Source of the DNA: a virus | Taxonomy: Duplodnaviria; Heunggongvirae; Uroviricota; Caudoviricetes | Reading direction: 5' to 3' (one strand) | DNA: 52,416 nucleotides | IMG/VR virus record: IMGVR_UViG_2896589216_000005 | In this document: piece by piece, positions 5,043 through 51,083 of the stretch | Numbering within the stretch: position 1 is the first letter of the stretch | How the letters are laid out: every line of letters begins with the position of its first letter | Position numbers and translations under genes: made by a program | Notes under the pieces: generated by a model | Seen by the model: only the letters and a program-made list of their open reading frames with translations | Databases searched by the model: none | What the model was told of the DNA's origin: nothing

Positions 5043-5315
5043 TGGAGCACCTCAAAAACACCATCATACACTAAATCAGTAAGTTGGCAGCATCACCAAA
5101 CAACCTTCAGACGTATTAACGTTTGGTAATAACGTTTCCATTATCGCGTCCTCAACAATGAATTTTGTGATGCGGTGCCTGGTGCCTCCAGGTGACGTTA
5201 ACCAGTTAACAATTAACGCCGGATACAGAGAATCCACCCATAACACTGTTTTTGGTTTTAACTGTTCTGCGTGCGCTCAGCCGCATTCACCACATCACAA
5301 AATTCACTTTAAAAA

Positions 5316-5368
5316 GGGCGGCAGAGCAGTCACGGAGTAAAACTGATACCGCCAAACGTCACCAGAAA
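5316..5368 (-). ncRNA. dicF: DicF small regulatory RNA (53 nt) followed by U-tract
   Basis: Reverse complement of 5316-5368 reads UUUCUGGUGACGUUUGGCGGUAUCAGUUUUACUCCGUGACUGCUCUGCCGCCC followed by UUUUU, matching the DicF sequence as recalled. Confidence 0.88.
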
Positions 5369-14850: not shown

Positions 14851-15061
14851 AAACGGTTTGCGGGAAAAGGAGAGTTAAGTAGAATTGCAGCGGGTGCTTG
14901 AGGCTATCTGTCTCAGGCATGAACACCAAAAGGCAGATAGAGAAAAGCCCCAGTTAACATTACGCGTCCGGCAAGACGCTTAACATTAATCTGAGGCCAT
15001 ATCTATGCTCTACACACGTAGGTTAGCCTCTTACGTGCCGAAAGGCAAGGAGAAGCAGGCT

Positions 15062-15217
15062 ATGAAGCAGCAAAAGGCGATGCTAATCGCCCTGATCGTC
15101 ATCTGTTTAACCGTCATTGTGACGGCACTGGTAACGAGGAAAGACCTCTGCGAGGTACGAATCCGAACCGGCCAGACGGAGGTCGCTGTCTTCACAGCTT
15201 ACGAACCTGAGGAGTAA
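15062..15217 (+). CDS. hok: Hok/Gef-family membrane toxin (51 aa)
   Basis: MKQQKAMLIALIVICLTVIVTALVTRKDLCEVRIRTGQTEVAVFTAYEPEE matches the Hok family signature (closest recalled member HokD/RelF). Confidence 0.8.
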   Translation: MKQQKAMLIALIVICLTVIVTALVTRKDLCEVRIRTGQTEVAVFTAYEPEE

Positions 15218-17090: not shown

Positions 17091-17465
17091 ATGCTCATAG
17101 ATTTGGTTTTACCTTACCCGCCGACGGTGAACACTTACTGGCGACGCCGTGGCAGCACATATTTTATCTCGGAGGAGGGAAAGCGTTATCGCCGGGCTGT
17201 GGCGCTTATTGTTCGCCAGCAGCGGCTGAAATTAATCCTGTCCGGAAGGCTGGCGATAAAGGTGATTGCAGAGCCACCGGATAAGCGTCGTCGCGACCTG
17301 GACAATATCCTGAAAGCACCGCTGGATGCGCTGACGCATGCGGGAGTGTTAATGGACGATGAGCAGTTTGATGAAATCAATATCGTTCGTGGTCAGCCAG
17401 TATCTGGTGGACGTATGGGGGTGAAGATTTACCCCATAATGCATGAAGAGCAGGTCAAAAAATGA
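17091..17465 (+). CDS. rusA: RusA-family Holliday junction resolvase
   Basis: 124-aa ORF; YPPTVNTYWRRRG and RRRDLDN motifs of RusA. Confidence 0.85.
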   Translation: MLIDLVLPYPPTVNTYWRRRGSTYFISEEGKRYRRAVALIVRQQRLKLILSGRLAIKVIAEPPDKRRRDLDNILKAPLDALTHAGVLMDDEQFDEINIVRGQPVSGGRMGVKIYPIMHEEQVKK

Positions 17466-18283
17466 AACTGGAAGATTTACCGAAATACTACTCCCCAAAA
17501 TCCCCTGGCCTGACCGATGTATCGGCCTCAACGTCAAAAGATGCGCTGAGTATCACTGATGTGATGGCCGCGCAGGGCATGACACAGAATCGGGCTGAGA
17601 TGGGGTTTTCTGCGTTCCTGGGGAAAATGGGCATCAGTATGAATGACAGGGCGCGGGCAACAGAATTACTGGCAGATTATGCACTCAGTCGGTGCGATCG
17701 TGTGGCGGCGTTGAGAAAACTTCCGGCAGAAATAAAACCGGTAGTGATGCGCATTATGGCTTCGTACGCTTTTGAGGATTATGCCCGCAGCGCAGCGAGT
17801 AAAAAGCAGTGCCCTTGTTGCTATGGGGAAAAATTTATTGAAAGCGTAGTTTTTACAAACAAGGTCCAGTATCCGGATGGTAAGCCGCCGGTATGGGCAA
17901 AGTGTACGAAAGGTGTGTATCCGTCTTACTGGGAAGAATGGAAAAAAGTCAGGGAGGTGGTAAAAGTTGCCTGTCCGGAGTGTGGCGGAAAGGGTGAGGT
18001 TTCCACCGCCTGTAAGGATTGCCGTGGGCGTGGTGTCGCCATTCATCGTGAAGAGTCGGTAAAACGTGGTATGCCTGTTATCAGAGACTGCCAGCGTTGT
18101 GGTGGTCGTGGCTGTGAAAGACTACCATCAACGGAGGCATTTAATGCCATATGCAAAGTGACGAGTGCTATCACGCTTGATACGTGGAAAAAATCAGTGA
18201 AACGCTTTTACGATACGTTGGTGGTTCGGTTTGACATTGAAGAGGCATGGGCGGAGCGGCAGTTAAAGAGGGTAACGCGATAG
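17462..18283 (+). CDS. Q: Late-gene antiterminator Q (zinc-binding type)
   Basis: 273-aa ORF with multiple CxxC pairs, located just upstream of a promoter/terminator pair and the late genes. Confidence 0.78.
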   Translation: MKLEDLPKYYSPKSPGLTDVSASTSKDALSITDVMAAQGMTQNRAEMGFSAFLGKMGISMNDRARATELLADYALSRCDRVAALRKLPAEIKPVVMRIMASYAFEDYARSAASKKQCPCCYGEKFIESVVFTNKVQYPDGKPPVWAKCTKGVYPSYWEEWKKVREVVKVACPECGGKGEVSTACKDCRGRGVAIHREESVKRGMPVIRDCQRCGGRGCERLPSTEAFNAICKVTSAITLDTWKKSVKRFYDTLVVRFDIEEAWAERQLKRVTR

Positions 18284-18288
18284 TGTTG

Positions 18289-18322
18289 TTGATTTTTCCC
18301 GAATCTGTGGTAAATTTGCTCT
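18289..18322 (+). promoter_or_regulatory. Putative late promoter PR-prime and qut region
   Basis: TTGATT, 16-nt spacer, TAAATT just after the Q stop and before the terminator. Confidence 0.35.
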
Positions 18323-18365
18323 AACGATGGGCGTTTTATGCCTGACGTTAGAAGATTTTTTACAC

Positions 18366-18388
18366 CCCGCCGCCTGGCGGGTTTTTTA
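18366..18388 (+). terminator. tR-prime-like intrinsic terminator
   Basis: Hairpin CCCGCC-GCCT-GGCGGG followed by TTTTTT. Confidence 0.55.
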
Positions 18389-18509
18389 TGACTGAAATCG
18401 CGTCAGTACAGTAAACGCGCTGGTGGCGGTGAATACCTGTCTTTCAGCTTGCTGGCTTTTTCGACAAGAGTTATTGGTGTGTCACGTTAACCGGAAAAGG
18501 GAAAAAGAC

Positions 18510-18707
18510 ATGCTGAAACAGCAGGATATGACAGAAACCGCCAGAGTGGTGTTTAATGAATTAAGCGTTAACGACCCGGCGACAGTCGGGGAGATTGCGC
18601 AGAATACTTACCTTTCACGCGAACGCTGCCAGTTAATACTGACCCAGCTGGTTATGGCGGGTCTGGCAGACTATCAGTTCGGTTGTTACAGACGCCTTCC
18701 GCAGTGA
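18510..18707 (+). CDS. Small winged-helix-like protein, 65 aa
   Basis: ATG at 18510 after the terminator; ORF track extends it upstream to 18423. Confidence 0.4.
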   Translation: MLKQQDMTETARVVFNELSVNDPATVGEIAQNTYLSRERCQLILTQLVMAGLADYQFGCYRRLPQ

Positions 18708-18857: not shown

Positions 18858-19916
18858 ATGCTTAATACTGTAAAAATATCCAGTTGTGAGTTAATCAACG
18901 CCGACTGCCTGGAATTTATCTGGTCGTTACCCGAAAATTCTGTTGACCTGATAGTCACGGACCCGCCGTACTTTAAAGTGAAGCCTGAGGGCTGGGATAA
19001 CCAGTGGAAGGGCGACGATGATTACCTGAAGTGGCTGGACCAGTGTCTGGCGCAGTTCTGGCGGGTGCTGAAACCTGCCGGAAGTCTTTACCTGTTCTGT
19101 GGTCATCGCCTGGCATCTGATATCGAAATCATGATGCGTGAACGCTTCAGTGTGCTGAACCATATTATCTGGGCGAAGCCGTCCGGACGCTGGAACGGAT
19201 GCAACAAGGAAAGCCTGCGGGCGTATTTCCCCGCCACAGAGCGCATTCTGTTCGCGGAACATTATCAGGGGCCGCATCGTCCGAAAGATGCCGGGTATGC
19301 GGCGAAGGGCAGTGCACTGAAACAGCATGTGATGGCCCCGCTGATTTCTTACTTTCGTGATGCGCGCGCGGCCCTGGGGATAACGGCAAAACAGATTGCA
19401 GATGCCACAGGAAAGAAAAACATGGTGTCGCACTGGTTCAGTGCCAGTCAGTGGCAGCTACCGAACGAAAGCGATTATCTGAAATTACAGTCGCTGTTTG
19501 CCCGGGTGGCAGAAGAGAAACATCAGCGCGGTGAACTGGAAAAGCCCCACCACCAGCTGGTGGATACGTATACGTCACTGAACCGGCAGTATGTGGAGCT
19601 GCAGAGTGAATATAAGCATCTGCGGCGGTATTTTGGTGTGACGGCGCAGGTGCCGTACACGGATGTGTGGACACATAAACCGGTGCAGTTCTATCCCGGG
19701 AAACATCCGTGCGAAAAACCGGCAGAAATGCTGCAGCAGATAATCAGCGCAAGCAGTCGTCCGGGTGACCTGGTTGCAGATTTTTTTATGGACTCAGGTT
19801 CAACGGTAAAAGCGGCACTGGCGCTCGGGCGTCGTGCGATTGGCGTTGAGCTGGAGACCGGACGTTTTGAGCAGACGGTTCGGGAAGTACAGGATTTAGT
19901 CAGCCAGAACGGATGA
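18858..19916 (+). CDS. Orphan DNA methyltransferase (N6-adenine/N4-cytosine class, DPPY motif)
   Basis: 352-aa ORF; N-terminal DPPY catalytic motif and C-terminal SAM-binding motif; no nuclease partner nearby. Confidence 0.85.
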   Translation: MLNTVKISSCELINADCLEFIWSLPENSVDLIVTDPPYFKVKPEGWDNQWKGDDDYLKWLDQCLAQFWRVLKPAGSLYLFCGHRLASDIEIMMRERFSVLNHIIWAKPSGRWNGCNKESLRAYFPATERILFAEHYQGPHRPKDAGYAAKGSALKQHVMAPLISYFRDARAALGITAKQIADATGKKNMVSHWFSASQWQLPNESDYLKLQSLFARVAEEKHQRGELEKPHHQLVDTYTSLNRQYVELQSEYKHLRRYFGVTAQVPYTDVWTHKPVQFYPGKHPCEKPAEMLQQIISASSRPGDLVADFFMDSGSTVKAALALGRRAIGVELETGRFEQTVREVQDLVSQNG

Positions 19917-19956
19917 TATTGCAGAATTAATTACGCGTCGTTATTATGCGGCTCCC

Positions 19957-20032
19957 GGCCCTTTAGCTCAGTGGTGAGAGCGAGCGACTCATAATCGCCA
20001 GGTCGCTGGTTCAAATCCAGCAAGGGCCACCA
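19957..20032 (+). tRNA. ileZ: tRNA-Ile2 (anticodon CAU, lysidine type; ileZ-like)
   Basis: 76-nt cloverleaf by hand folding; anticodon loop CUCAUAA; near-identical to recalled ileX; encodes 3-prime CCA. Confidence 0.85.
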
Positions 20033-20039
20033 TCACATA

Positions 20040-20116
20040 CCGCCATTAGCTCATCGGGATAGAGCGCCAGCCTTCGAAGCTGGTTGCGCGGGGTTCGAGT
20101 TCTCGATGGCGGTCCA
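20040..20116 (+). tRNA. argO: tRNA-Arg (anticodon UCG)
   Basis: 77-nt cloverleaf by hand folding; anticodon loop CUUCGAA; T-loop TTCGAGT; encodes CCA. Confidence 0.78.
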
Positions 20117-20130
20117 TTTATCGGTATTCT

Positions 20131-20200
20131 GCGTTGTTAGCTCAGCCGGACAGAGCAATTGCCTTCTAAGCAGCTGTGGTTGCACTCCTGTTGTTTCTGG
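20131..20200 (+). pseudogene. Degenerate tRNA-Arg (UCU) remnant
   Basis: Intact acceptor 5-prime strand, D-arm and CUUCUAA loop, but no canonical T-arm or matching 3-prime acceptor strand. Confidence 0.4.
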
Positions 20201-20373
20201 TGGTGATGGTGGACTTCAGCAGCCGGATAATGTCGGTGCTGTCTGATGATGTTTTGGTGGCGGGTGTGGTGGTTGTTGCTTTCCCGTTGCTGAAAAAGAA
20301 AGCATCAGGCGATTAGCAGGGTATCAGTTACCCGTTGAAATTTTTAAATACCTCACAATTCCACAGCTTGATG

Positions 20374-20570
20374 ATTGTCTGGCTGCCGGAGAATTTGTTA
20401 AAAATTACATCGCATGGTGAATCCCCCTCAGCGGCGGGGCATCTGGCAAAGTGTATGATCCAGAGAACATGCAAATTCAGTAGACAGGCTGAATTTACCG
20501 GGAGGCACCTGGCACCATGCGACAGACAGAAATTAGGCTATACTTCAGCCCCTCTCCGGAGGGGCTTTTC
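20374..20570 (+). repeat. Structured direct-repeat unit A (about 200 bp) ending in an 8-bp GC hairpin plus T-run
   Basis: Shares conserved blocks with unit B; terminal hairpin AGCCCCTC-TCCG-GAGGGGCT followed by TTTTCT. Confidence 0.5.
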
Positions 20571-20842
20571 TGTGCAGGATGTGTCACAGTTTCCTGAATT
20601 CTGAGTACTGTCCTGTTACTCAGGGTGCTATATTTTCTGACGTGATGAAAGTCTGCCGGAAGGCGGAACGTATCGGAAATGACCCAGTAGAGAAAACGTT
20701 GACTCAGATACCGATGCTGAGTTACCGGGAAACCGGCATCACATGACCGCTATCCTTCCAGGCTCGCTCCGGCGGGCCTTTTTACTGCAGAAAACAGTTT
20801 TCCCGTAAAATGCTACGTTGCTCATAATTCAGGCTGGCGATT

Positions 20843-21035
20843 ATTGTCTGGCCAGCGGGAAGTTTGTTAAAAAATTTCGCATGGTGAATCCCCCTGTGCG
20901 GAGGGGCAATCAGCGAGTAGGTATATGGGATAATCGCGGATTCAGGTGCTGGTACTGAATTCACCGGGAGGCACCCGGCACCATGCAATGGCACATAGCG
21001 CCACTCTCCAGCCCCTCTCCGGAGGGGCTGTTTAT
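20843..21035 (+). repeat. Structured direct-repeat unit B
   Basis: Same block order as unit A, 469 bp downstream; identical terminal hairpin. Confidence 0.5.
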
Positions 21036-21064
21036 ATTGATTTTGTCAGATGTGAGTAAACTCC

Positions 21065-21400
21065 TTATGGACTTTGTTGTTTTAGTCCATAAGGACATAT
21101 TTGCAGAGTGCAACGGTTATTAAAGCATTCATTCAATACGTTATCTGTATTTGTAGGGCATTCCTGGCTGTTTTTGATTAAATTCCAGAATGTTTTATTG
21201 AATGGCACTACGTTGTAAATGGTTACAGGTAGCACTTTGTTATTGAGCATGATGCCTGTGTGAGTCAGTGTAAATATACTTTCAGGAGGTAAGAAAGCAT
21301 CCGATTGATACCAGATTATTAATTTTATTTTACTCCATATGACTGAAAAAGATATTCCGCATGATGGCTGGATAACTGTATCAATCACAATCCACTTCAT
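21065..21400 (-). CDS. Hypothetical protein in AT-rich island, 111 aa
   Basis: ORF with AGGAAA SD 4 nt before the ATG; low GC relative to flanks; the 3-prime end overlaps a hairpin, so the C-terminus is uncertain. Confidence 0.4.
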
Positions 21401-21659
21401 TTAGTTTCCTTGTTTATGTCTTGCTGGTGATGTTCTGAAAAGTATAAATGATATTTTTGATTGTAAACCATAGAGCAGAATTATTTTTCTGATGTTGTTT
21501 ATTGTTTATTTAAATGCATGGTGGTTTATATCTCGTCTTGTAGTTTATCCATGCATATCTGCTTGATGATGAGGTTTTTATTTAAGGTATGGTTTTGTTT
21601 TTTTCTGTATTACATGTCAGGTATTTTAAAGAATCATTTTTCAGATGGTGGAAAGAACC

Positions 21660-23516
21660 ATGGCATTTAAACACTATGATGTTGTCAGGGCGGCGTCGCC
21701 GTCAGATCTTGCGGAAAAGCTGACACATAAACTGAAAGAGGGCTGGCAGCCGTTTGGTAGTCCGGTGGCCATAACCCCTTATACCCTGATGCAGGCGATT
21801 GCAGCAGAAGGTGATGTGGTCGTCAGTGGTGCAACTGAGCCGGAGTGGTACTACGTCATCGTACTGGCCGGGCAATCCAATGCCATGGCTTACGGTGAAG
21901 GGCTTCCGCTTCCGGATTCTTACGATGCGCCCCACCCACGTATTAAGCAACTGGCCCGTCGCAACACAGTGACTCCCGGTGGTAAAGCATGCGCATTTAA
22001 CGACATCATTCCGGCAGACCACTGCCTGCATGATGTTCAGGATATGAGCGCACTGAATCATCCGAAGGCAGACCTGAGCAAAGGGCAGTACGGCTGTGTC
22101 GGCCAGGGCTTACATATTGCCAAAAAACTGCTTCCGTATATCCCGAATAACGCGGGGATCCTGCTGGTACCATGCTGTCGTGGTGGTTCGGCATTCACCC
22201 AGGGCGCGGAGGGGACATTCAGTGCGGACACGGGGGCCAGCCAGGATTCGGCACGCTGGGGTGTGGGTAAACCGTTATATCAGGACCTGATCGCACGCAC
22301 CAAAGCGGCATTACAGAAGAACCCGAAAAATGTGTTGCTGGCGGTGTGCTGGATGCAGGGCGAATTTGACATGAGCGCTGCCACCTACGCACAGCAACCG
22401 GACCTGTTCACGGCCATGCTGAAGCAGTTCCGTACTGACCTTTCCGGATTTAACGCGCAGTGCCATGGCGGCAGTGCTGCAGTTGTACCGTGGATTTGTG
22501 GCGACACGACGTATTACTGGAAAAACACATACGGCACACAGTATGACTCCGTCTACGGCGCGTACAAAAACAGGGAGAGCGACAACGTTTTCTTTGTGCC
22601 GTTCATGACCGACGGTAACGGCAACAACACGCCCACCAACTTACCGGCAGAAGACCCGGATATTGCTGATGCAGGTTATTACGGCGCGCAATCCCGTAGT
22701 AATGGTAATTGGGTATCGTCAAATCGTCCGACACATTTCAGTTCATGGGCGCGCAGGGGCATTATTTCGGATCGCCTGGCAACCGCTATTCTGAACGCAG
22801 TTGGTCGAACCAGCGCCTTCATCAGCGGTACCGCACCGGAGATTAAACCCTCGCCCGGCGGCGACACGCCATCGGGGCCGTCTGATGGTGACACATCCGT
22901 TCGTACAGTCTCCCTGCTGCCGACAGCCGGAGAGGCTGCTGCGCAGGGCTGGACCATCACCGGCGGCAGTGTTGCGCTGGAAGATGGTGTGTTTAAGGTT
23001 ACCAAGCAGAGCAATAAAACCTGGTCCCTGATGCATCCGGTGGATGACGCAGTCTCCCTGCTGACACGGGGTGGCAGACTGAGCTGTAAGTTTCGACTGT
23101 CAGGCGCACTGACCAACAACCAGTTCGGTCTGGGAATTTATCTGTATACCGATGTAGCGTTACCTGACGTCGTGGCGATGACCGGGACTGGTAACCCGTT
23201 CCTGATGTCGTTCTTCACCCAGACCACAGACGGCAAACTGAATCTGATGCATCACAAGAAAGCCGGAAACACAAAGTTGGGCGAGTTCGGGAATTACAGT
23301 AACGACTGGCAGACGCTGGAGCTGGTGTTCACCGCCGGCAGTGCCACGGTTACTCCGAAACTGAATGGAGTGGCTGGCCCGGCATTCCAGGTCATAAAAG
23401 ACAGTCTGACACTGGGGCTGAATGCGCTGACGCTGACGGATATTACCAAAAATGCAGCGTATGGCGTTGAGATAGAAAGTCTGGTGCTGGAGATAAATGC
23501 ACCGGCATCATCATAA
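21660..23516 (+). CDS. NanS-p-like sialate O-acetylesterase (DUF1737 + SGNH/SASA esterase)
   Basis: GQSNA esterase motif and N-terminal DUF1737-like segment; the position Stx-type phages use for this gene. Confidence 0.78.
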   Translation: MAFKHYDVVRAASPSDLAEKLTHKLKEGWQPFGSPVAITPYTLMQAIAAEGDVVVSGATEPEWYYVIVLAGQSNAMAYGEGLPLPDSYDAPHPRIKQLARRNTVTPGGKACAFNDIIPADHCLHDVQDMSALNHPKADLSKGQYGCVGQGLHIAKKLLPYIPNNAGILLVPCCRGGSAFTQGAEGTFSADTGASQDSARWGVGKPLYQDLIARTKAALQKNPKNVLLAVCWMQGEFDMSAATYAQQPDLFTAMLKQFRTDLSGFNAQCHGGSAAVVPWICGDTTYYWKNTYGTQYDSVYGAYKNRESDNVFFVPFMTDGNGNNTPTNLPAEDPDIADAGYYGAQSRSNGNWVSSNRPTHFSSWARRGIISDRLATAILNAVGRTSAFISGTAPEIKPSPGGDTPSGPSDGDTSVRTVSLLPTAGEAAAQGWTITGGSVALEDGVFKVTKQSNKTWSLMHPVDDAVSLLTRGGRLSCKFRLSGALTNNQFGLGIYLYTDVALPDVVAMTGTGNPFLMSFFTQTTDGKLNLMHHKKAGNTKLGEFGNYSNDWQTLELVFTAGSATVTPKLNGVAGPAFQVIKDSLTLGLNALTLTDITKNAAYGVEIESLVLEINAPASS

Positions 23517-23662
23517 AAAGTGAGCCAGTCAAATGGAAGGTATCGTTAAACTCACCGGTAGTGTCAGTGGGTAGACTGGCCCCCTGAATCTCCAGACAAC
23601 CAGTATCACTTAAATAAGTGATAGTCTTAATACTAGTTTTTAGACTAGTCATTGGAGTACAG

Positions 23663-24094
23663 ATGATTGATGTCTTAGGGCCGGAGAAACGCAGACGGCG
23701 TACCACACAGGAAAAGATCGCAATTGTTCAGCAGAGCTTTGAACCGGGGATGACGGTCTCCCTCGTTGCCCGGCAACATGGTGTAGCAGCCAGGCAGTTA
23801 TTTCTCTGGCGTAAGCAATACCAGGAAGGAAGTCTTACTGCTGTGGCCGCCGGAGAACAGGTTGTTCCTGCCTCTGAACTTGCTGCCGCCATGAAGCAGA
23901 TTAAAGAACTCCAGCGCCTGCTCGGCAAGAAAACGATGGAAAATGAACTCCTCAAAGAAGCCGTTGAATATGGACGGGCAAAAAAGTGGATAGCGCACGC
24001 GCCCTTATTGCCGGGGATGGGGAGTAAGCTTAGTCAGCCGTTGTCTCCGGGTGTCGCGTGCGCAGTTGCACGTCATTCTCAGACGAACCGATGA
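23663..24094 (+). CDS. insC: IS2 orfA (InsC) of copy 2, C-terminally altered
   Basis: ORF extended to 143 aa by the 1-bp deletion; S-to-R substitution relative to copy 1. Confidence 0.7.
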
Positions 24095-24890
24095 CTGGAT
24101 GGATGGCCGCCGCAGTCGTCACACTGATGATACGGATGTGCTTCTCCGTATACACCATGTTATCGGAGAGCTGCCCACGTATGGTTATCGTCGGGTATGG
24201 GCGCTGCTTCGCAGACAGGCAGAACTTGATGGTATGCCTGCGATCAATGCCAAACGTGTTTACCGGATCATGCGCCAGAATGCGCTGTTGCTTGAGCGAA
24301 AACCTGCTGTACCACCATCGAAACGGGCACATACAGGCAGAGTGGCCGTGAAAGAAAGCAATCAGCGATGGTGCTCTGACGGGTTCGAGTTCTGCTGTGA
24401 TAACGGAGAGAGACTGCGTGTCACGTTCGCGCTGGACTGCTGTGAGCGTGAGGCACTGCACTGGGCGGTGACTACCGGCGGCTTCAACAGTGAAACAGTA
24501 CAGGACGTCATGCTGGGAGCGGTGGAACGCCGCTTCGGCAACGATCTTCCGTCGTCTCCAGTGGAGTGGCTGACGGATAATGGTTCATGCTACCGGGCTA
24601 ATGAAACACGCCAGTTCGCCCGGATGTTGGGACTTGAACCGAAGAACACGGCGGTGCGGAGTCCGGAGAGTAACGGAATAGCAGAGAGCTTCGTGAAAAC
24701 GATAAAGCGTGACTACATCAGTATCATGCCCAAACCAGACGGGTTAACGGCAGCAAAGAACCTTGCAGAGGCGTTCGAGCATTATAACGAATGGCATCCG
24801 CATAGTGCGCTGGGTTATCGCTCGCCACGGGAATATCTGCGGCAGCGGGCTTGTAATGGGTTAAGTGATAACAGATGTCTGGAAATATAG
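24051..24890 (+). CDS. insD: IS2 orfB (InsD) of copy 2, N-terminally truncated (279 aa)
   Basis: Lacks the first 22 codons present in copy 1; D-to-E substitution. Confidence 0.7.
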
Positions 24891-50499: not shown

Positions 50500-51083
50500 T
50501 GGCATTCAGAATGAGTGAACAAGCACGGACCATAAAAATTTATAATCTGCTGGCCGGAACTAATGAATTTATTGGTGAAGGTGACGCATATATTCCGCCT
50601 CATACAGGTCTGCCAGCAAACAGTACCGATATTGCACCACCAGATATTCCTGCTGGCTTTGTGGCTGTTTTCAACAGTGATGAGGCATCGTGGCATCTCG
50701 TTGAAGACCATCGGGGTAAAACGGTTTATGACGTAGCGTCAGGGGACGAGTTATTTATTTCTGAACTCGGTCCGTTACCGGAAAATGTTACCTGGTTATC
50801 GCCGGAAGGGGAGTTTCAGAAGTGGAACGGCACAGCCTGGGTGAAGGATACGGAAGCAGAAAAAATGTTCCGGATCCGGGAGGCGGAAGAAACAAAAAAC
50901 AACCTGATGCAGGTAGCCAGTGAGCATATTGCGCCGCTTCAGGATGCTGCAGATCTGGAAATTGCAACGGAGGAAGAAACCTCATTGCTGGAAGCCTGGA
51001 AAAAGTATCGGGTGTTGCTGAACCGTGTTGATACATCAACTGCACCTGATATTGAGTGGCCTACGAACCCTGTCAGGGAGTAA
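50499..51083 (+). CDS. tfa: Tail fiber assembly protein Tfa
   Basis: 194-aa ORF near-identical in pattern to lambda Tfa; start overlaps the stf stop (TAATG). Confidence 0.92.

Follow-up and report, generated by a model that had tools for sequence, protein, structure and literature searches.

What does a lambdoid prophage carry at the place where Shiga toxin (Stx) phages have their toxin genes? The question is raised by the interval between the tRNA genes and the NanS-p-type esterase gene in the viral record IMGVR_UViG_2896589216_000005 (hereafter the window, a stretch of 52,416 nucleotides (nt) that is a complete lambdoid prophage; all coordinates are window positions). A sequence-only reading of the window had pointed to two same-orientation repeat units in this interval and had proposed that they are a duplicated small-RNA gene rather than coding sequence. 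We find that the interval is best explained, as a whole and with good confidence, as three tandem genes for small RNAs (sRNAs) of the STnc100/PasD family on one strand, facing a convergent gene for the anti-adaptor protein IraL.

The repeats are STnc100 genes

Both repeat units are present at the described positions, as four linked pairs of direct repeats (20370-20404/20839-20873, 20410-20441/20877-20908, 20489-20520/20955-20986 and 20543-20569/21006-21032) with 80-94% identity, and all of the blocks quoted for them were found. Both units finish in the same hairpin, AGCCCCTCTCCGGAGGGGCT, followed by a T-rich tail. A terminator scan returned 9 sites, against 1.7 ± 1.5 in shuffled sequences.

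The Rfam scan that the sequence-only reading had proposed was run over the whole window, and both repeats matched the family STnc100 (RF02076). With the threshold at 47 bits, unit 1 (20382-20575) reached 140.5 bits and unit 2 (20851-21039) 132.8 bits; both matches span the full model (positions 1-206), with E-values over the whole window of 5e-31 and 4.6e-29. These matches far exceed chance. Units 1 and 2 are full-length STnc100 members above the gathering threshold, and we regard the identity of the elements as almost certain. The small-RNA interpretation was therefore right, although the statement that no known family could be matched does not hold: RF02076 fits, and its relatives EcOnc27/sRNA103 and PasD1/2 have been detected experimentally. 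Copy 2 is of the commonest type in the family, with a 5' domain identical to that of the single copy in CFT073, and published STnc_100 quantitative PCR primers (PMC12370729) match unit 2 exactly at 20880-20899 and 20953-20972.

Few sRNAs are annotated more often in bacterial genomes than STnc100 (PMC9029176). For instance, EDL933 has 11 copies, which are transcribed with low ribosome coverage, and STnc100_4 is positive by Northern blot (PMC5331693). In Stx2 phages, an STnc100 copy lies 75 nt after stx2B (PMC12370729) and overlaps the Hfq-bound EcOnc27/sRNA103 (PMC12711010, PMC7873438, PMC4104026), which is positive both in Hfq cross-linking and analysis of cDNA (Hfq-CRAC) and in Northern blots (PMC7873438, PMC4104026). 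STnc100 is also related in structure to PasD1/2 (Zhu, Shabalina and Storz, bioRxiv 2026), two sRNAs that are abundant hubs in Hfq RIL-seq (in which interacting RNAs are ligated and sequenced) of enteropathogenic Escherichia coli (EPEC) E2348/69 (PMC8550237).

The 5' domain is a conserved fold

In units 1 and 2 the RNA is laid out as a 5' domain closed by GCAUGGUG/CACCAUGC, a mostly unpaired linker and a terminator. The 5' domain holds the hairpins P2, a variable P3, P4 and P5. Covariation was analyzed across homologues: a scan of IMG/VR with two anchor motifs yielded 120 loci, which together with other loci gave 55 distinct 5' domains. RNAalifold predicts 27 pairs for these domains. Paired cells make up 98.0%, versus 95.2 ± 0.2% in shuffles, and two-sided changes occur at 10 pairs, versus 2.7 ± 1.1 in shuffles (0 of 500 reach 10) and 3-6 in slid controls. 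In helix 4, six of the seven pairs show compensatory changes, one of them being AU 27 times, GC 21 times and CG once. The covariation of the 5' domain is real, and the conserved structure of STnc100 is present.

Binding of CsrA through GGA motifs was also considered and was set aside as speculation, as P2 does not conserve its GGA (GCGGCGGGG in unit 1) and only the CGGGA of P5 remains.

A diverged unit between the two repeats

The description of the locus as a duplicated unit stands as far as same-strand repeats of an sRNA gene are concerned, but there are three related units rather than two. The middle unit has an extended -10 element, TGcTATATT (20626-20634), a predicted start near 20642, a 5' domain reaching to ~20742, the linker AUGACCGCUAUCCUUCC and its own terminator (20760-20779) followed by T5. 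With R1, a covariance model built in this analysis, it scores 22 bits (E-value 0.002 over 121 kb and 4e-6 locally). It has the family architecture with every helix compensated (closing helix GUGAUG/CAUCAC, P2 UCUGCC/GGCGGA, P5 CCGG/CCGG; z -2.87). In two natural variants of the unit (~91% identical), P2 is kept through a change from U-A to C-G and the -10 element is unchanged. The middle unit is probably a diverged, functional paralogue. We rejected the idea that it is PasD itself, because its linker and terminator differ and its score is lower than that of PasD.

Arrays with ~468-484 nt between the outer copies occur in at least seven IMG/VR contigs. The Pas copies, by comparison, are reported to be distal and not tandem (Zhu, Shabalina and Storz, bioRxiv 2026). 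In one further IMG/VR contig (L131:2943-3395), two family 5' domains lie ~255 nt apart, with tails that match no common type of linker plus terminator; this may be another array layout.

Predicted promoter elements upstream of each unit

The 5' end of PasD2 has been mapped to position 741157 of NC_011601 by RNA-seq and Northern blot (PMC8550237). This position is the G of GCATGGTG, which gives the geometry TTGACT-18-TAAAAA-7-G(+1). Units 1 and 2 share it, with TTGTCT, 18 nt and a TAAAAA preceded by TGn, and their starts are predicted at or near G20412 and G20879. On this geometry, the first two conserved blocks (ATTGTCTGGC and TTTGTTAAAAA) most probably represent each gene's -35 and extended -10 elements, and not RNA stems as the sequence-only reading had assumed. 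Across 41 distinct upstream sequences, the best-conserved stretch is TTTGTTAAAA (~50-90% per position). RpoD has been reported at STnc100 promoters in Salmonella LT2 (PMC10794520). The terminators of the units are clear, and the promoters are predicted from homology to PasD and from motif conservation.

Exchangeable linkers on a common scaffold

We found 34 distinct linker-plus-terminator modules 3' of the closing helix. The linkers in these modules are 19-63 nt long. One 5' domain can be joined to different linkers, and one linker to different domains, which shows that the family consists of a conserved scaffold and exchangeable linker-plus-terminator modules.

In PasD, the seed UGUGAG lies directly 5' of the terminator and pairs with the target motif CUCACA(GG) (PMC8550237). 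The segments 5' of the terminator in the window are ...GGCUAUACUUC in unit 1 (similar to that of the 933W copy), ...GCUAUCCUUCC in the middle unit and ...GCCACUCUCC in unit 2 (the commonest type). The three linkers are unrelated in sequence; those of the middle unit and unit 2 are CU-rich next to the terminator (UCCUUCC and CUCUCC), which resembles an anti-Shine-Dalgarno sequence. We lean slightly toward the view that the linker is the seed, in which case the array would have three specificities.

The convergent gene is iraL

The 111-amino-acid open reading frame (ORF) that the sequence-only reading had placed at 21065-21400, in an AT-rich segment, is present, but it lies on the minus strand and encodes a known protein. 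A homologue search showed that its product is identical to IraL of CFT073 at 111 of 111 positions and 62% identical to IraM of K-12. It belongs to the NCBIfam family NF007393 (IraM; 162 bits, cutoff 121) and matches the IraM structure PDB 8twd with an E-value of 9e-32. IraL of CFT073 has been shown experimentally to be an RssB anti-adaptor that stabilises RpoS in logarithmic phase (PMC4045071). The published iraL sequence from 5'-RACE (rapid amplification of the 5' ends of cDNA) is found exactly in CFT073 and, with 2 substitutions, on the minus strand of the window at 21402-21433. As the RACE start maps to 21433, the AT-rich stretch 21434-21640 holds the iraL promoter and the region upstream of nanS-p. 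The low GC content noted for this segment was confirmed (0.29-0.39 across 21000-21700).

The gene is convergent with unit 2, at the position that AsxR holds in 933W. On the strand opposite to iraL, 35 nt past its stop (21065), lies the near-palindromic terminator of unit 2 (21009-21030). In the direction of iraL this terminator lacks a T-run, and transcription from iraL may thus continue antisense into unit 2. The iraL stop codon is overlapped by a perfect 12-bp inverted repeat (21062-21073/21084-21095).

Proposed mechanism and its alternatives

From homology and motifs, we consider it likely that the units are independently transcribed Hfq-type RNAs. Each gene would have its own sigma-70 promoter with a TG-extended -10 element, so that the sRNAs could be expressed in the lysogen without Q. 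Each would yield an RNA of ~145-160 nt, in which the first ~110 nt would form the conserved multi-hairpin domain. This would be followed by a largely single-stranded linker of 17-29 nt, then a GC-rich Rho-independent terminator and a U tail, the usual Hfq-binding module. With the linker as the putative target-pairing region, by analogy with PasD, the units would act on host or prophage mRNAs through Hfq, and because the three linkers are unrelated, the array would supply three specificities on one scaffold. After induction, Q-modified polymerase would pass the three terminators and reach nanS-p and the lysis genes. IraL would bind RssB and so stabilise RpoS, as its CFT073 counterpart does.

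Several points weigh against this account. The search pattern for homologues fixed CATGGTGAATCC and CCGGGAGGC, so helices 1, 2 and 5 were hardly able to vary on their anchored sides. A simple consensus promoter scanner called no plus-strand promoters at the units, because TAAAAA lacks the final T, and the promoter step is thus a prediction. The scanner did find minus-strand look-alikes (TTAACA-16-GACAAT) over the conserved blocks, which we judged secondary, given that the 5' end mapped for PasD agrees with the plus-strand geometry. The middle unit scores less than the Rfam threshold of 47, and its -35 element is weak; PasD1/2 are also under that threshold, at 37.7 and 41.4 bits. The proposed role of the linker as a seed is transferred from PasD, and several linkers of the family are not CU-rich. 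Discrete transcripts, Hfq binding and target pairing are known in the literature from homologues. Surveys list the function of STnc100 as unknown (PMC9029176), phenotypes of EcOnc27/sRNA103 have been reported only from overexpression, and their direct targets are not established. Lastly, the 5' domain may exceed the role of a scaffold, because the same domain is found inside the dicBF mRNA.

This occurrence was revealed by an R1 match on the minus strand at 5162-5295 (59.6 bits, E-value ~1e-12), in the spacer between DicF (5316-5367) and dicB. Its closing helix (AUGUGGUG/CACCGCAU) and P5 (CCUGG/CCAGG) are compensated, and its score against the Rfam STnc100 model is 34.4 bits, below threshold. 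R1 finds the same spacer element in CFT073 (60.4 bits; L006:12365-12498, minus strand) and in the K-12 prophage Qin (55.8 bits; L248:1956-2089), where it ends ~20 nt before the start codon of dicB and has no terminator. We found no description of this domain in the searchable dicBF literature. We propose, tentatively and as less likely than not, that the ~110-nt domain which STnc100, PasD and the middle unit have in common with the dicF-dicB spacer could be a portable functional RNA module of lambdoid prophages. It could be protein-binding or nuclease-protective, would be set 5' of a seed or of the dicB ribosome-binding site, and would be used three times here to present three seeds.

A related explanation, which does not exclude seed-bearing linkers, is that the 5' domain is itself the functional part (a platform or sponge for protein or RNA, or a nuclease shield), with the linker being secondary and the copies acting by dosage. 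The domain is much more conserved than the linker, and PasD, the middle unit and the dicF-dicB spacer all preserve it through compensatory changes and retain the P5 element CGGGA(G/A) in the alignments. We nevertheless consider this explanation unlikely, since the target motif of PasD in RIL-seq pairs with the linker and not with the domain, the domain has no known partner, and its conservation may partly reflect the search pattern.

We regard it as quite improbable that the units are cis-acting pieces of the late operon (stacked terminators, or structures for processing or stability) or inert relics, rather than trans-acting RNAs. They do lie inside the late transcription unit driven by pR', between Q/tR' and the lysis genes, with a strong terminator at the end of each; in the dicF-dicB spacer, the same 5' domain is internal to an mRNA with no terminator after it, and the negative result of the promoter scanner fits a cis-acting role as well. 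However, the conserved extended -10 element keeps a constant distance from the 5' end mapped for PasD, discrete Hfq-bound RNAs arise from homologues in uninduced lysogens, and linkers are conserved within types and swapped between types, as expected for seeds. That the repeats encode small proteins or are remnants of them is highly improbable: ORFs of 89, 55 and 70 amino acids overlap the units and are annotated as hypothetical proteins in ON470612 and as partial pseudo coding sequences (CDSs) in RefSeq genomes, but Pfam and NCBIfam give no match for them, any one reading frame is open in at most 28 of the 49 domains searched for a conserved one, domain lengths fall in all three residues modulo 3, and substitutions compensate within pairs instead of following a codon pattern.

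The Stx-equivalent site and its surroundings

In 933W, the order of features is tRNAs, stx2AB, STnc100 (207.7 bits), AsxR on the minus strand (88.1 bits) and the SASA esterase; the STnc100 copy lies 75 nt after stx2B, and AsxR is convergent to it. Because 933W has the same frame of tRNAs and SASA esterase with stx2AB inside, the interval in the window is the Stx-equivalent site, as the comparison with stx-flanking sequence suggested by the sequence-only reading confirms. The claim that the repeats stand there instead of toxin genes does not survive that comparison: 933W carries STnc100 alongside stx2AB, and STnc100 is therefore a normal resident of the site and no substitute for the toxin genes. 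The location of the units is that of STnc100 elsewhere, the late region of lambdoid prophages with stx, tRNAs and the SASA esterase adjoining. For instance, the phi-potB prophage of CFT073 has three intact tRNAs, a DUF3927 gene, one STnc100 copy and iraL, and E2348/69 has DUF3927, then PasD, then an esterase or a holin gene. The interval is very probably the "moron" region next to the late promoter of a lambdoid prophage closely related to phi-potB. No Rfam match to AsxR or AgvB (RF02703, RF02702) was found at E ≤ 1 in 19900-21700, nor a blastn match to AsxR of 933W; the 933W copy of AsxR served as the positive control for the Rfam search.

The gene order in the window is Q, a late-promoter/tR'-like region, a DNA methyltransferase gene, tRNA(CAT), tRNA-Arg, an argO stump, a DUF3927 ORF, the three RNA units, iraL on the minus strand, the NanS-p esterase gene, an IS3-family element, and the holin and lysozyme genes. 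The coordinates are given in Table 1.

Table 1. Features of the interval and its flanks in window coordinates, with the evidence for each
Feature	Position	Strand	Evidence and remarks
Antiterminator Q	17462-18283	+	Pfam PF03589, 171.6 bits; left-hand context (17462..18390)
Terminator-like hairpin, tR'-like	~18364-18389	+	ACCCCGCCGCCTGGCGGGTTTTTTAT, read directly in the sequence
tRNA, CAT anticodon, ileZ type	19957..20032	+	ARAGORN; Rfam tRNA 72.5 bits; annotated as tRNA-Ile in L002 and L006
tRNA-Arg (TCG), argN type	20040..20116	+	ARAGORN; Rfam 50.3 bits
argO stump (third phage tRNA, tRNA-Arg UCU)	20131..20172	+	First 42 nt of intact CFT073 argO, then diverges
Small hydrophobic ORF, DUF3927	20176..20316	+	Pfam PF13064, 65.6 bits against a cutoff of 25
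Predicted promoter, sRNA unit 1	20375..20404	+	-35 TTGTCT (20375-20380), 18-nt spacer, TG-extended -10 TGTTAAAAA (20396-20404)
STnc100 copy 1 (RNA ~160 nt)	20412..20571	+	Rfam 140.5 bits; R1 96.4 bits; minimum free energy (MFE) -59.6 kcal/mol, z -3.44; terminator stem 20547-20566
Diverged third family member	20626..20785	+	Rfam STnc100 20611-20786, 30 bits, E 3e-4 (permissive regional scan)
Predicted promoter, sRNA unit 2	20844..20873	+	-35 TTGTCT (20844-20849), 18-nt spacer, TGTTAAAAA (20865-20873)
STnc100 copy 2 (RNA ~157 nt)	20879..21039	+	Rfam 132.8 bits; R1 129.1 bits; MFE -69.5 kcal/mol, z -3.14; terminator stem 21009-21030
iraL	21065..21433	-	CDS 21400..21065 plus 33-nt 5' untranslated region (UTR); start-site equivalent 21433; sigma-70 promoter ~21434-21475
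NanS-p-type sialate O-acetylesterase (DUF1737 + SASA + DUF6645)	21645..23516	+	Pfam; synteny with 933W, E2348/69 and DA33133

Just 3' of Q (18290-18390), a promoter-like TTGATT...TAAATT and the strong terminator ACCCCGCCGCCTGGCGGGTTTTTTAT look like pR' and tR' of the late operon. A 94-amino-acid ORF with no Pfam match follows this region at 18423-18707. The tRNA at 19957-20032 is called tRNA-Met (CAT) by ARAGORN, versus tRNA-Ile in RefSeq for the identical gene (ileZ type, presumably lysidine-modified). What the sequence-only reading took for a degenerate third tRNA is a stump of argO, which retains 42 nt from the 5' end, through the anticodon loop, and has lost the 3' half. Neither ARAGORN nor Rfam calls a tRNA there, and no complete cloverleaf is present. 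The DUF3927 ORF after the stump had been overlooked; a DUF3927 gene also precedes PasD1 and PasD2 in E2348/69.

On the right, the NanS-p-type esterase gene is the border of the moron region. An IS3-family element (23618-24890, with an HTH_Tnp_1 ORF and an rve ORF) lies between it and the holin gene, at the location that the sRNA PasA has in E2348/69; no PasA homologue was found in the window. Elsewhere in the prophage, Rfam matches the sok antitoxin RNA (14892-15067, plus strand, 117.1 bits), DicF (minus strand, 76.7 bits) and IS009 (50842-51040, plus strand, 223.8 bits).

Of 5426 complete E. coli genomes, 1008 have at least 80% of the block 20120-21644 (best identity 99.3%), and four phage records carry the block at 96.8% identity. 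A scan of genome contigs (596 Gb) with the 15-base pattern GCATGGTGAATCCNCC was discarded; among the matches listed there were only unrelated taxa, as expected by chance, and they carry no taxonomic information. Over the sRNA units, public annotation consists of partial pseudo-CDSs in RefSeq and hypothetical proteins in phage records, and STnc100 RNAs are annotated in none of L002:5749-5874, L006:23270-23395 and L001:4350-5079.

Comparison with known systems

The units resemble STnc100 and EcOnc27/sRNA103 of the Stx2 phages Sp5 and 933W in fold, in the style of the terminator and in position between the tRNAs (or stx) and the SASA esterase, and the linker of unit 1 (ACAGAAAUUAGGCUAUAC) is similar to that of the 933W copy (ACAGAGAUUAGGCAUAUAC). 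The window differs from 933W and CFT073, which have one copy each at the site, in its three tandem copies, and it has neither stx nor a convergent AsxR or AgvB.

With PasD1/PasD2 of EPEC E2348/69 (Pearl Mizrahi 2021; Zhu, Shabalina and Storz 2026), the units share the synteny (Q ... DUF3927, sRNA, SASA esterase or holin), the geometry of the promoter and the arrangement of linker seed and terminator, and the 5' domains are homologous (35-41 bits). The PasD linker is longer, however (63 nt in PasD-like modules), with the seed UGUGAG and a different terminator. All of the window linkers lack that seed, and in none of the three units does UGUGAG stand directly 5' of the terminator GGCUGCGCA..GCGCAGCC.

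The convergent sRNA dyads at the PR' moron site (Tree et al. 2014; EcOnc27/AsxR and EcOnc06/AgvB) occupy the same site and likewise have a sense STnc100-type RNA facing a convergent gene, but in the dyads the partner is an anti-sRNA of 51-60 nt, whereas here it is the protein gene iraL. Among the IraL/IraM/RssC anti-adaptors, the ORF is identical to IraL of CFT073, with the same prophage context and a conserved region around the mapped start; apart from the two substitutions in the 5' UTR, it does not differ in substance from CFT073 iraL.

OmrA/OmrB and PrrF1/PrrF2 are tandem paralogous Hfq sRNAs in which the seed is the shared part. They are likewise adjacent same-strand paralogues with a common scaffold and terminator; in the window, by contrast, the units have the structured domain in common and differ in the presumed seed.

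Meaning for the family and the prophage

The small RNAs and the ORF are already known, and the locus is real but ordinary. What may be new is the diverged third copy, the tandem layout, the view of the family as a scaffold with exchangeable modules, and the STnc100-like domain in the dicF-dicB spacer. These sRNA genes still escape genome annotation, in which hypothetical or pseudo CDSs are placed over the units, and the Rfam threshold misses diverged members such as PasD and the middle unit. A scaffold combined with exchangeable modules offers a testable handle on the function of the STnc100 family. More speculatively, with iraL beside three Hfq-type RNAs in a block that about one fifth of the complete E. 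coli genomes carry, the prophage may hold a cassette for adjusting the stress regulation of its host.

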